Made by a program: the position numbers and the translations under genes | In this document: piece after piece, positions 1,988 through 40,605 of the stretch | How positions within the stretch are numbered: the stretch's first letter is position 1 | Layout of the letters: the number at the start of each line of letters is the position of its first letter | Source of the DNA: Eledone cirrhosa | Lineage: Eukaryota | Length of the DNA stretch: 64,000 nucleotides | Assembly (NCBI GenBank): GCA_964016885.1 | Contig: OZ024741.1 | Location: 265,050,001 to 265,114,000 of the forward strand | Direction of reading: 5' to 3' | Notes under the pieces: model-generated | The model's database searches: none | What the model was told of the DNA's origin: nothing | The model's input: only the letters and a program-made list of their open reading frames with translations

Positions 1988-2118
1988 TATTTATTAAAAT
2001 AACAGATTAAAGTTTAAGCAAAGAATCGCTGCTTTCACCCTTAACGGATCTTAAGATCCCGTTAAGGGTGAAAGCAGCGATTCTTTGCTTAAACTTTAAT
2101 CTGTTATTTTAATAAATA
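1988..2118. repeat. Near-perfect fold-back palindrome (about 65-bp arms) centred on a truncated hammerhead-like core
   Basis: tatttattaaaat...cccttaacggatct|taagatcccgttaagggtgaaag...ttttaataaata. Confidence 0.9.
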
Positions 2119-3427
2119 AATATATATATATATATAGAGAGAGAGAGAGAGGGAGAGAGAGAGAGAGAGAGAGAGAGAGAGAGAGAGAGAGAGAGAGAGA
2201 GAGAGAGAGAGAGAGAGGGAGAGAGAGAGAGAAAAGGTATCTGTTAGAACACGAAAAGTGTGAAACACAGAATGTTCACTTTTCGTGTTCTAACATATAT
2301 GCCTAGCTTCTTTAAAAATTTTTCGGGGATAGCCGTGGTGGTGATCGTATGTCATTGGCTAATTTTCAACCAATCAGAGTACCTCTCTCTATATCTCTTC
2401 CACTGTTACTTACGCCTGTTTCTCTCTATCTGTTCCGTCTCTATTTATATCTCTTACTCTTTCGCTTTGCACTCCTCCCCTTCAATACCATCTCTCCCCC
2501 TCTCTATATATTTGTTACTCTATCGCTGCACGCTCCTCTCCTTCAATATATCAATTACACACGCTTTACACTCCTTTATCCCCAGCGCCCCTATATATAC
2601 ACCCCCTCTCCCGCATCTATATTTTAATGTACCGTTGCACCGTGAATACATGTGTCTATATATATATATACATATATATTGTATATACACATTCATGTAT
2701 GTGTATACACACTCATGTATGTATATACACTGGTTTTATGTGTGTATTGTAAATTTGTACTGTTAAAACACGAAACTAACATTCGATTGACACTTTGATT
2801 ACCTGTACAGGCAATAGTTATTAGAATGCTGTTGAAGTGTGTATATATTTTTGGGGGACATCCTGTATATACACACATTATATATAATACAATAAACAGA
2901 TAAATACACACATATATATATGAGCTTATTTAATTATAAATATTGTGAATTTTTAACTCAGTTCAATTATATATATAAATGGCTTCTACAGGACTAGAAC
3001 TGTTTCATTCGAAAGAAATCATCATAATATTGAGAGGGGGGACTAGATAAAATATTTCAAATCAAATGTGTATAAGTTATAAGTTAAAATGTATAAATAG
3101 AGACGATAGTGGAGGTATATCTGTTTAGTGGAACAGTAGACGATAGAATTAAATACAGACGATAATCTCCCTTTAATGAAACAGCAGACGATAGAATTAA
3201 GGCAATTTAAATTTTAAGCATTTGCATTTTTGCCTTTCATCGTTACGGGGTCGATAAAATAAAGTACCAGTAATACACTGTCACTAGACGACTTTCAAAT
3301 TGAATTGTTGGTTCCATTTCTTTAGTATTTTCAATTGTAGTTATCTACTTAAAAAGCGTTACACGGTTAGAGACATAATTCGTAAGTTATATCTTCCCTA
3401 TTAAACCATTGCATTATTTCGCCTACA

Positions 3428-3619
3428 GGGCGGTGAATTGGCAGTATCGGTAGAGGGTTGGACGCCATGCTTTCTAGCATAGTTACGTCCCTTTACAGTC
3501 TGAGTTCAAATCCCGCCGAGATTAACTTTGCCTTTCATCCTTACGGGGTCGATAAAATAAAGTACCAGTAATGTACTGGGTAATTTGCTGGCCTTGTGCC
3601 TAAAGTAGAAACAATTATT
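3428..3619 (+). mobile_element. tRNA-derived SINE (main family)
   Basis: Same head, core and tail as 974-1164. Confidence 0.9.
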
Positions 3620-4301
3620 TCGCCTACAATAGAACAAAAATGAAATGTTCTTTAAAGAAACAGGAATATAACTTTATAAAAAAAAAAGTTGCATCCGCTT
3701 CTTTTATCATTGATAATTTTTTCGTTTTAATATTAATTGTTTTTTGCAGTTGTTTATATTAAAAATCTTACTGTAATATTTACTTAAACGAAGGCAAACA
3801 TCTAAACTTATAGATTAATCTTGAGCGAAGGACTAGATAAATCTCTCTCTCTCTCTCTCTCTCTCTCTCTCTCTCTCTCTCTCTCTCTCTCTCTCTCTCT
3901 CTCTATAAACGAAGAATGATAAAATTTCAAGCAAAGAGTTTAATTAGGTATATTTTGTAATATTATTAACTAATTATTATAATTAACGCGCATATTTTGC
4001 TATCCTCAAACACGTTTACACATGGCATGAAATATAACTAATCCGAGATGGCTAGGTTTCATCTTCTAACTGGATAAACGAAATCCATTATGTCTTGACA
4101 ACAACATGAGGTAACATTATGTTATTCACAGACACACTTTGTACACTGTTCCATATCAGAATGTATTTCCTTCGTCACATTCACAAACAGTATTGAAAAT
4201 ATGTTCTTCGGCAAATAAAAATGTTTTGTTCATAATATTTCAACTAGCGATTGCTCTACTTCACGCACGACCACCATAAATTAATGACCAGCTCAACACA
4301 A

Positions 4302-4470
4302 GTATTGGTAGAGCGTCAGACACCATGCTTTGCAGTATTGTTATGGTCCTTTGCATTCTAAGTTCAAATCCTGCCGAGGTTAACTTCGACTTTCATACTT
4401 ACTAATTCGATAAAATAAAGTACCAGTAATGGACTGCCGTAATGGATTTGTGCCGAAAAATAGAAACACT
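4302..4470 (+). mobile_element. tRNA-derived SINE, diverged
   Basis: gttcaaatcctgccgagg...gataaaataaagtaccag. Confidence 0.8.
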
Positions 4471-5024
4471 ATTAATGTGCAATAAGAGCAAAATATAACG
4501 ACATTGCTCAATTATTTTATCTAATGTTGTAATAACACAAGGAAATGTTGTTTGTGTATTTTTTTTTATATTTGCTCATAGGCTTTTACAATTTCGCTCA
4601 GCCAACAACTATTAAAAAGTGAGTTGCTTAAGATAACAATTTAATCACAAATTGTTGCTATCTTTTAATACACTCCAACAAGTCATCAAATTATGTACAA
4701 TAAAAACAAATCTTATTAATTTGCTCAGGGAATATAAAGAAAATGTATATACACTGATAATTGCAAATGTATGTAAATATTTTGTTTTTGTATTGTATAT
4801 TTTATGTTTTCTATTATGTATAATATATTGATTTAATATTGATTGTTTTTTGTAGTTGTTTATATTAAAAGTCTGAAAATATTTTTATACATCTTACACT
4901 AATATTTATAAGATAATTTATAATAACAATTACATAATCTAATTACATTACAACGATAATTTATTATTAATATATATCCTGTTTAACTAGAGTTATTACA
5001 AGCGTTGCCTTAAAAAAATATTAA

Positions 5025-37736: not shown

Positions 37737-37872
37737 CACAGTGAATTTGCAGCTCTGTAAATGGTGGCTGGAAGTTGTGCAGCGAACATCTTAGGAGTAC
37801 TACTACAGCTGTCAGCTGGGGAAGAAAGGATGGTGTCGCAGACAATTGAATCAAATAATAAACATACGAAAG
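37737..37872 (+). other. Candidate exon, possibly start-codon exon (ATG 37761: MVAGSCAANILGVLLQLSAGEERMVSQTIESNNKHTK)
   Basis: Perfect TACTAAC branch point at 37702-08, ttttttacag acceptor, aag|gttaag donor; open from the ATG to the donor. Confidence 0.45.
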
Positions 37873-38503
37873 GTTAAGACGTGTCATTTCTGCTACTAAT
37901 TGAAGATGTAAGACATCATACAAGGAGTTAAGACGTGTCATTTCTGCTACTAATTGAACATATAAGACATCGTACGAAGAGTTAAGACGTGTCATTTCTG
38001 CTACTAATTGAACATATAAGACATCATACGAAGAGTTAAGACGTGTCATTTCTGCTACTAATTGAACATATAAGACATCATACGAAGAGTTAAGACGTGT
38101 CATTTCTGCTACTAATTGAACATATAAGACATCATACAAGGAGTTAAGACGTGTCATTTCTGCTACTAATTGAACATATAAGACATCATACGAAGAGTTA
38201 AGACGTGTCATTTCTGCTACTAATTGAACATATAAGACATCATACGAAGAGTTAAGACGTGTCATTTCTGCTACTAATTGAACATATAAGACATCATACG
38301 AAGAGTTAAGACGTGTCATTTCTGCTACTAATTGAACATATAAGACATCGTACGAAGAGTTAAGACGTGTCATTTCTGCTACTAATTGAACATATAAGAC
38401 ATCGTACGAAGAGTTAAGACGTGTCATTTCTGCTACTAATTGAACATATAAGACATCGTACGAAGAGTTAAGACGTGTCATTTATGCTACTAATTGAACA
38501 TAT
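37866..38503. repeat. 54-bp minisatellite, about 12 copies
   Basis: gttaagacgtgtcatttctgctactaattgaacatataagacatcatacgaaga. Confidence 0.97.
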
Positions 38504-39317
38504 AGTGGGTAATAGGAAAAGGTATGACCCCGATGGCAGAGCTCAAGCCGTTTCGACGGCTATTTAGTCCAGAAATAGCTGTCGAAACTGCTTGAGCTCT
38601 GCCGTCGGGGTCATACCTTTTCCTATATATATACATATATATATAATTATATTATATTATGTGTTTGTATATCAGTGTGTGTGTGTGTGTGTATATATAT
38701 ATATATATATATATATATATATATATGTGTGTGTATATATATATATTATATCATATGTGTGCATATCAGTGTGTGTGTGTGTATATATATATTCAATAAA
38801 CATACGATATATATACACACACATAATATAATATAATTTATCTGCAAACAACACACACACACCACACATATGTCTGGATGCCTGGCTGTGTATGTGTGTG
38901 TGTATCTATGGATATATGTGTGAATATCACCTGGTAGTGTGTGTATCACCATGTTTGAATAAATTTGACTAAATTTGTTATTATGCATGACGGGAAATTT
39001 ACATATCCATATATATATATATATATATATATATATATATATATATATAACGAAGGAAATGTGGTAAGGAACCAGGTGGACCATAACGCACCAAAGTACT
39101 CAATACTTAGGGTAGTAGAGTGGGTAATAGGAACGAGTAGGACCCCGACGGCTGAGCTCAAGCCGTTTCGACGGCTAATTCTGGACTCATTGTGTCCAGA
39201 ATTAGCCGTCTAAACGGCTTCAGCTCAGCCGTCGGGGTCCTACTCGTTCCTATATATATATATATATATATATATATATATATATATATATATATATATA
39301 TATATATATATATATAT

Positions 39318-39664
39318 ATTGTTATACTTGGGGAGGGTCATATTTGTGTAATATTGCCAGAATTAATAACAGAACACACTCACTGTTTGGTTGGTTTTCG
39401 CTTCTCGCTTCTGTGTCTTTTATATCGGTAATCTAACTTACTCGGTCCTCAATGTTGCCATTGATATATATGTGTTTGTGTCTATATTGTATCTGTATTA
39501 TTTTTGACCGCCGGTCAGTCAATGGCAACATTGAGGACCGAGTAAGTTAGATTACCGATATAAAAGACACAGAAGCGAGAAGCGAAAACCAACCAAACAG
39601 TGAGTGTGTTCTGTTATTAATTCTGGCAATATTACACAAATATGACCCTTCCCAAGTATAACAA
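39318..39664. repeat. Fold-back with about 145-bp near-perfect arms
   Basis: ttgttatacttgggga...gttgccattga [about 55 nt] tcaatggcaac...cccaagtataacaa. Confidence 0.92.
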
Positions 39665-40605
39665 TATTTGTTTCAACACACGATTTCATATAAAAAACCT
39701 CGCAAAACTAATTCATCGCCTATATATATATATATATATATATATATATATATATATATATAAAGAATTTGTATATCTACCAACATATATATACAGATGC
39801 ATACCTATGCTAGCAAATATATAGGTTTTGTCTTAGTAACTTTGTGGTTCAATGCAAGGGGATGCAGAACAACTATATGAAAGACGTAAAATAAGAAAAT
39901 TATAAAAATTAACTTACTTACTAAGTAAGTTAATTTTCTTATTTTACGTCTTTCATATATATATATTTTCTATCGTTGCTTTGGTATATATTGTGTGTTA
40001 GTTTTGCCTACCACAATGTTCGATTTGTCAAGCTATTTAAACGTATGTTATTACTCTGAGGTCCTATCTTACCGAGTGCTTTGCTAACTCATCATTTCAT
40101 ATAAGCAGGCCGAATTTACTTGCAAACCGCCAGAGATTCGATTTTACTGATTTCCAATTATATATATATTTATATATATATATATATATATATATATATA
40201 TGAAAGGTATAGAAAACATTGTAGCAAAAAGCCAACAGTATTCCATAATATATAAGTGACTATATGTATATATATATGTATATATATATATATAGAGAGA
40301 GAGAGAGAGGGGGGGGGAGATGTGTGTATATGTGGTTGTATGCATGTATATATTTACATAAATAAAATATATATAAAATATATATATGTTTGTATGCATG
40401 CATCTCAGTCTGTTTGCCAGTCTCTCTGTTTGTCTATCTGTCTGTCTGTCTGTCTGTCTGTATGTATGTATGTATGTATGTATGTATGTATGTATCTCGA
40501 AAGCGCGCTGCGTCGTCAGCGCGTTCGGGGCGACGGCGCCGTTGTCGTTCGCGCGCCGCGCGTCGACTTCGGTCGTCCGTTCGCACTCCCGGCCCTATTA
40601 TATGT

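Follow-up and report, generated by a model that had tools for sequence, protein, structure and literature searches.

The 64-kb window analysed here, the whole stretch between positions 265050001 and 265114000 of contig OZ024741.1 in the 3.0-Gb assembly of Eledone cirrhosa, carries many short head-to-head fold-backs, hereafter also called cassettes, which lie in or beside (TA)n repeats. These hairpins are 5'-truncated double insertions of Penelope-like elements (PLEs) and of two non-coding hammerhead repeats; they probably arose when both cut ends of a (TA)n target primed reverse transcription on the same RNA molecule, each from its own fixed start site. That both ends of a break prime reverse transcription had been proposed in a preliminary description of this DNA, and the proposal is now supported by three observations, namely that a fold-back carries a tail on exactly one arm, that either arm may be the longer one, and that the two arms share variants. 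While the structures themselves are of a known kind, these genome-wide counts are new; a literature search made without most subscription papers and Repbase found neither tail counts per fold-back nor such structures in cephalopods.

The cassettes of the window belong to seven families, A to G, each of which was searched in its own genome (40 candidates scored and 20-30 loci kept per search) and then walked upstream. The resulting 290 loci, together with the window, yielded 197 distinct fold-backs by automatic calling. Every family has two fixed 3' ends, located either at a proximal site or at a distal site 55-115 nt beyond it, the tail being the segment between the two. Family C was left out of the main count, its TA-rich end having confused the classifier. 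Among the 179 remaining fold-backs, exactly one tail was found in 168, two in 7, none in 2 and a partial one in 2, where about 50% of one-tailed cases would be expected if the ends were independent. The same rule appears in the fold-backs that were not selected by the query (75/80, or 75/79 when only the fully classed ones are counted, p ~5e-18 against 50%), as well as in 60 evenly spaced 10-kb stretches (22 of 23 fold-backs). For family C, 7 of the 18 calls were discarded, being either one-armed or noise from microsatellites, and once the proximal site had been reset 10 of the remaining 11 had one tail. Inspection of the 11 deviating cases revealed two family B fold-backs that are really one-tailed, one full-length A element, two unfinished G arrays and two cassettes with one tail cut short. 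Besides, unpaired (solo) ends are tailed in 44 cases, tail-less in 37 and partial in 1, both sites being used about equally.

Regarding arm length, the tail-less arm is the longer one in 19 of the query-independent one-tail cases and the tailed arm in 17, the two being equal in 41. Most arms are short, with 85 of 109 family A arms measuring 40-69 nt, 54 of 61 family D arms measuring at most 64 nt, and both arms remaining below 100 nt in 18 of the 23 sampled cassettes; subfamily divergence upstream may shorten the calls in A and D, and whole cassettes agree with these lengths. Inner junctions and arm lengths vary between copies: at the junctions of families B, E, F and G (n=80), the arms overlap by 1-8 nt in 39 cases, abut in 8, are separated by a gap in 29 and show a larger overlap in 4. 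In terms of sequence, an arm is closer to its partner than to the median other arm in 46/46 cases in A, 16/17 in D and 14/18 in F, and minority variants shared between arms exceed those of permuted pairs in F (21, null mean 0.3) and G (12, null mean 0.2).

The (TA)n preference claimed in the preliminary description was also borne out, since TATA occurs within 14 nt of both outer ends in 131 of the 179 non-C fold-backs from all loci, of one end in 37 and of neither in 11, against a background of 15% per end. In the six non-C families, the letters of the element end in TAT, ATAT or TATAT at the proximal site. For the distal site, the template can be followed beyond the tail in one family A locus (L278), two family D loci (L372/L376) and the tandem copies of G and C; its match to the repeat there extends over 2 nt in D, 2-3 nt in C, 3 nt in A and 4 nt in G. 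Overall, the start sites terminate in TA, TAT or ATAT, as does the target.

Within the window, 33 inverted pairs of at least 18 nt lying less than 800 nt apart were detected after masking of microsatellites, compared to 0-1 per local shuffle (20 shuffles), part of them being pairs of short interspersed elements (SINEs) and other repeats rather than cassettes. At least 14 inverted duplications had been announced at 15 sites, and 14 of these are indeed two-armed fold-backs (1988, 6841, 7442, 16775, 19110, 19231, 21335, 25372, 25840/26660, 31445, 38512, 39126, 39318 and 39876); at the last site, 8214, the second arm is interrupted at 8288, where a family A copy starts. Five cassettes belong to A, one to B, two to C, two to D, one to E, two to F and two to G. 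Their 3' ends point outward, as had been noted from the hammerheads, and the same orientation follows from the upstream open reading frame (ORF) that other copies possess in families A, B, D, E and F. Six cassettes folded as RNA form long hairpins, with z-scores from -7.8 to -22.7. The cassettes and the solo copies of the same families are as follows, the clade names standing for putative assignments by motif.

1900..2118, fold-back of family B (Hydra-type PLE): tail 1900-1987 on the left arm, arms of ~66 and 67 nt, right end tail-less; ORF upstream in loci L068/L089/L281
6632..7109, fold-back of family C (~440-nt tandem hammerhead repeat): a later insert at ~6785-6823 divides the left arm, tail on the right arm
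7375..7522, fold-back of family D (Hydra-type PLE): left arm with partial tail, right arm with a mutated hammerhead core at 7466; ORF in loci L371/L372
8123..8288, fold-back of family C: right arm interrupted by a family A copy, 8289-8497 (+)
16676..17009, fold-back of family E (Hydra-type PLE): left tail 16676-16764, hammerhead core at 16923 (+), its helix II being shortened; ORF in loci L313/L320/L377/L379
19087..19205, short fold-back of family A (Hydra-type PLE): left arm with 22 nt of tail
19221..19355, fold-back of family D: right arm tailed
21292..21697, fold-back of family F (Neptune/Nematis-type PLE): left tail, hammerhead motif 21501-21545 (+); ORF in loci L039/L044/L285
25256..25730, fold-back of family G (525-nt tandem hammerhead repeat): 114-nt tail and 47-nt arm on the left, 317-nt arm on the right with hammerhead motif 25592-25676
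25764..26792, fold-back of family A: 77-nt tail and 150-nt arm on the left, 805-nt tail-less arm on the right, complete U3-A8 hammerhead motifs at 26683-26776 (+) and 25857-25950 (-)
31371..31568, short fold-back of family A (older subfamily): left tail
38501..38626, short fold-back of family A: left-arm tail broken off after 11 nt by a satellite array
39048..39253, short fold-back of family A (second subfamily): left tail
39316..39722, fold-back of family F: left arm of 150 nt, tail-less; right arm of 204 nt with a 55-nt tail
39765..39958, short fold-back of family G: left tail
27450..27845 (+), solo copy of family C with hammerhead motif (core 27535) and tail
20170..20306 (+), solo 3' end of family A with tail
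Further solo ends: 428-515 (B), 2971 (D), 21882 and 26854 (C), 23788 (F), 33929 (G) and 62311-62440 (D)

Two local arrangements deserve mention. The family C cassettes at 6886 and 8250, 1.4 kb apart, have a common inner junction and a common local variant, reflecting either a local duplication or a junction hot spot. Between 18963 and 19115, a tail-only piece of family A and the tailed end of the 19110 cassette lie opposite each other on the two sides of (TA)n, thereby forming a second inverted pair.

The upstream walks in other genomic copies lead families A, B, D, E and F into ORFs encoding a reverse transcriptase (RT) and a GIY-YIG endonuclease, whereas no ORF linked to C or G was found in 30 loci each. 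Eleven of the 15 cassettes are thus 5'-truncated ends of protein-coding, autonomous PLEs, and four belong to two non-coding, retrozyme-like tandem hammerhead repeats, so that the earlier reading of all cassettes as tiny non-coding PLE or retrozyme-like insertions stands for C and G only. The Penelope-like origin is upheld by the five families that reach PLE ORFs, but the Neptune group, which had been mentioned, would be represented among the cassettes by the Neptune/Nematis-type F alone, the main clade being, as judged by motifs, Hydra (A, B, D and E). Likewise, the families were described as many and unrelated; there are seven, with arms unrelated as DNA, of which four are related at the protein level.

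The ORF of family A shows the motifs DKT, YRDD, CxCX5C, YIG, CxxC and CxH. Four parts make up its locus L278, which measures ~2.9 kb and has an internal deletion: one copy in inverted orientation, a short tailed repeat upstream, the 670-aa frame (containing YRDD and YIG) and a 3' end devoid of a tail. The L278 protein gave no significant match in a Pfam search and has 1308 relatives at E<=0.001, nearly all of them unnamed. An RT with a C-terminal GIY-YIG was found in L278 for A, in L371/L372 for D and, in pieces, in L379/L381 for E, B being represented by thumb and endonuclease only (L281). DKT stands in place of DKG in A (L278) and D (L372), and NKT is found at the corresponding place in E (L381). 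The N-terminal RWK motif reads RWR in D and E and was not seen in A, whose ORF start is frame-shifted. A CxCX5C linker and an endonuclease with CxxC and CxH, devoid of CCHH, were seen in A, D and E; in B, the linker was seen in L089 and CxxC in L281, CxH not being seen. Owing to long 3' untranslated regions (UTRs), D and E exceed 3 kb. Two multi-kb head-to-head insertions of family D (L373 and L374, ~7.9 and ~4.2 kb) follow the one-tail rule too. Family F combines an RT with YVDD, a CX4CxxC linker and a CCHH-type C-terminal GIY-YIG, and these motifs designate it as a Neptune/Nematis-type PLE; a Pfam search with a 347-aa piece of it matched no family.

Family G is a 525-nt monomer repeated head-to-tail, with dimers or trimers in L092, L101, L104, L108, L111 and L115, and family C a ~440-nt monomer with tandems in L152, L155 and L165. 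A Neptune ORF lying beside G in L116-L118 was considered as the parent of G and rejected, as it is a neighbouring element on the other strand. In these loci (G000:C4:38.10-38.11 Mb), a 2.55-kb tandem unit contains a Neptune-type ORF fragment and a G dimer that lie on opposite strands and are connected through a common tail-like sequence.

The single-RNA dimer model that we infer from the counts above, together with the biochemistry of a purified PLE, would run as follows. The PLE endonuclease would cut both strands of (TA)n, and a protein dimer bound to one RNA would pair one DNA end with the distal site, so that its copy includes the tail, and the other end with the proximal site, via 2-5 base pairs. 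Synthesis of both complementary DNAs (cDNAs) would end prematurely, in A and D mostly after 40-70 nt, and repair would join their 3' ends, often at 1-8 shared bases. In this context, Frangieh 2024 (PMC11167929) describes a PLE protein that cuts and extends both strands from two start sites bounding the tail, and for which dimerisation is predicted.

Several points weigh against this model. About 4 true exceptions to the one-tail rule remain after inspection, and many inner junctions show a gap rather than an overlap. The distal match amounts to only 2 nt in D, and for B and F the searched loci revealed no continuation beyond the distal site. Arms are not clearly closer to their partner in B (10/26), E (7/11) and G (8/16), and shared variants are weak in A (5 vs 0.5, with a null maximum of 5) and B (3 vs 0.2, over 64 variant sites); shared variants could also come from later gene conversion between arms. 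Arm lengths are biased towards short values, long cassettes of subfamilies devoid of a long reference being missed. No single junction of the window was bridged by independent reads, the one tested being 16886-16890, in 4 runs. Finally, in the Poseidon-clade element of Frangieh 2024 (PMC11167929), initiation is not homologous to the cut DNA and the two strands are alike in start site.

An alternative, rather unlikely in our view, is that the two ends are primed on two separate RNAs of the same source locus, the choice of a distal start for one and a proximal start for the other being imposed by an asymmetric protein complex. This would account for the one-tail rule, for the free arm lengths and, if the ribonucleoproteins are source-specific, for the shared variants, and would spare two polymerases from working on the same RNA stretch; nevertheless, it needs both an asymmetry and a strict same-source pairing despite coexisting subfamilies, and is thereby less economical. 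The genome data do not distinguish it from the one-RNA model. Self-priming, hypothesised in Arkhipova 2013 (PMC3846280), in which one cDNA or antisense transcript folds at a palindrome and copies itself, would readily explain variants common to both arms as well as the palindromic centres seen at some junctions. However, such a copy can neither exceed its template nor gain a tail, and the simple form of this snap-back is contradicted because either arm may be longer, as in the 19 and 17 cases reported above and in the cassette 25764-26792, where a 150-nt tailed arm faces an 805-nt tail-less one; we regard it as very improbable. Equally at odds with the copies is the idea that the cassettes are self-contained tiny fold-back elements or miniature inverted-repeat transposable elements (MITEs) moving as fixed units: their high copy number, symmetric look and TA flanks are what it would predict, but inner junctions and arm lengths differ among copies, the ends are asymmetric and five families reach PLE ORFs, which leaves it hardly credible. 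On the varying inner junctions, family F as a fixed MITE unit was rejected, and no ordinary terminal-inverted-repeat transposon with fixed symmetric ends was recognised, interior and ends varying across copies. Assembly or library fold-back artefacts are scarcely conceivable as well, for although palindromes next to microsatellites are error-prone and the junction 16886-16890 is unbridged in the 4 public runs, only 21 of 134 compared arm pairs are identical, a one-sided tail is unlike the artefact pattern, and fold-back joints of families A and E occur at varied positions in contigs of public runs, possibly from the source sample.

Returning to the two-ended insertions on one RNA, all seven families (7/7) carry, in sense orientation and upstream of their 3' end, a hammerhead motif, which agrees with their earlier designation as hammerhead-bearing, although most short cassettes contain only part of it. 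The motif was recognised by descriptor in E and C, with a U3-A8 core in A, and by eye, at atypical positions, in B, D, F and G. The strict descriptor returned only 4 candidates and the relaxed one 7, compared to 0-1 in shuffles, B, D, F and G still being missed. In family A, 95.7% of the cells are paired across 13 copies, against 21-54% in slid controls, and covariation is not above shuffles. An Rfam scan gave no hammerhead family among the best 150 of 175 matches, all under gathering scores. The family B 3' end in L089 shows a hammerhead-like fold with the core CAGAAGA (A for U4) and an extended helix I. In short cassettes, the hammerheads are likely dead passengers, because most are incomplete and a long hairpin would out-compete their fold. 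A role of the hammerhead fold as a stop for the RT was not confirmed, since the apparent breakpoint peak of family F at the hammerhead vanished with a long reference (9 informative arms); in A and D, breakpoints cluster at 40-69 nt and do not coincide with the cleavage sites, ~16-20 nt from the proximal end. Cervera 2014 had already described U3-A8 cores, as well as pairs of hammerheads in opposite orientation at distances of 100-700 bp.

In terms of abundance, 23 non-C fold-backs in the 600-kb sample correspond, for six families only, to 38 per Mb (95% interval 24-58) or, if the sampled large contigs are typical, to about 115,000 (about 10^5) genome-wide, the window being ~5x denser than the sample. 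Paired arms make up ~0.4% of the sampled bases. In Porath 2017, 4.4e-3 of octopus loci can form long double-stranded RNA (dsRNA), octopus being omitted from the repeat analysis as given there. A link of the fold-backs to adenosine-to-inosine (A-to-I) editing is a lead only, because the two measures differ. A wider scheme may be imagined, though it is doubtful, in which the integration of microsatellite-targeted PLEs would be coupled at two ends on a single RNA, each end aligned telomerase-style on a short AU word at its own start site, retrozymes would ride the same machinery, and the ~10^5 abortive hairpins (~0.4% of bases in paired arms) would be a main source of long dsRNA behind the extreme A-to-I hyper-editing reported for octopus. 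If so, in an octopus host with transcribed hairpins, much of the dsRNA excess measured in Porath 2017, unassigned to repeats, could be explained. Besides, Craig 2021 (PMC8557442) names the formation of inverted PLE structures and the microsatellite bias as open questions, which ~10^5 events make countable. Taken together, the single tail, the unconstrained arm lengths and the variants common to both arms separate two-ended priming from the published self-priming and offer sharp predictions for the existing in vitro system.

Other elements are present in the window. A young element of fixed structure at ~3790-5986, matched over 4701-5990 by 20/20 loci, near 100% at its end, has a CTAG end before (TA)n and an internal 216-nt inverted repeat (5022-5237/5764-5979); it probably represents a non-autonomous Helitron-type element rather than a fold-back of PLE origin. 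At 24385-24763, the 3' ends of two long interspersed elements (LINEs), presumably RTE-like, are arranged tail to tail on either side of a microsatellite, with 131/133 nt complementary, likely as two insertions in one TA repeat. A decayed Neptune-type PLE at 31582-33150 retains an RT end, a frame-shifted linker, a GIY-YIG (Pfam E 5e-4) and a hammerhead core at 33097, and three more solo hammerhead-bearing 3' ends, from other families, lie beside (TA)n at 18396, 33269 and 33471. Satellite arrays occupy 12100-12900, 29540-30440, 37860-38500, 46140-47580 and ~48000-61300, their types comprising a 31-nt GC-rich one, an 18-nt family, a 45-nt and a 70-nt one, and a 13-kb ACC/AAC-rich array.

In comparison with known systems, the cassettes share with the canonical PLE insertion unit the head-to-head arrangement, the inverted 5'-truncated copy of the pseudo long terminal repeat (pLTR) and the tail at one end; an inverted truncated copy, an optional tail and (TA)n targeting are published PLE features (Arkhipova 2013, PMC3846280; Craig 2021, PMC8557442). 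The canonical tail, however, is given as 30-40 bp and as 'optional' or 'often' one-sided, whereas here it measures 55-115 nt and exactly one is present in 94% of cases; in addition, either arm may be longer here and most insertions are reduced to two arms below 100 nt. The Poseidon element PAc studied in vitro (PMC11167929) likewise has two internal start sites bounding the tail, cuts and extends two strands and is a predicted dimer, but it starts without homology to its AT-rich targets and without coupling of strand and site, while here the start sites agree with the TA repeat and one end is coupled to the other.

The Hydra clade of Craig et al. 2021 (PMC8557442), of which one family, Hydra-1_Obim from Octopus bimaculoides, is listed there, is characterised by a C-terminal GIY-YIG, DKT, RW[KR], a CxCX5C linker, CxxC, CxH, no CCHH, a hammerhead near the 3' end and (TA)n targeting, its members being generally <3 kb. 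The families described here appear to share its endonuclease and linker motifs, DKT (A and D), RW[KR] (as RWR, D and E), the 3'-end hammerhead and the (TA)n targeting, five of their peptide motifs giving no match in the supplement of that paper. They differ in that at least 4 families are present, with unalignable 3' UTRs and tails of ~67-92 nt, in that D and E are >3 kb, and in their variant hammerhead cores, U3-A8 in A and A at position 4 in B.

As for C (~440 nt) and G (525 nt), they resemble the animal non-LTR retrozymes (Cervera and de la Pena 2020, PMC7229834; Li et al. 2026, bioRxiv 10.64898/2026.07.22.740005) in being non-coding tandem monomers with a type I hammerhead motif, and both display at least 2 consecutive non-coding units each bearing this motif, which is what defines a retrozyme. 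Unlike these, C and G, known here from sequence alone, show the full PLE insertion signature of two start sites, one-tail fold-backs and TA targets. This signature constitutes structural evidence for PLE enzymes moving retrozymes. In LINE-1 twin priming, both target strands prime on the element RNA as well, leaving an inversion; what it inverts is a segment further upstream, the 3' end staying single, whereas here the 3' end is duplicated. Taken together, the fold-backs represent the known PLE insertion unit in an extreme truncated form, produced from new Hydra-type, Neptune/Nematis-type and retrozyme-like families.

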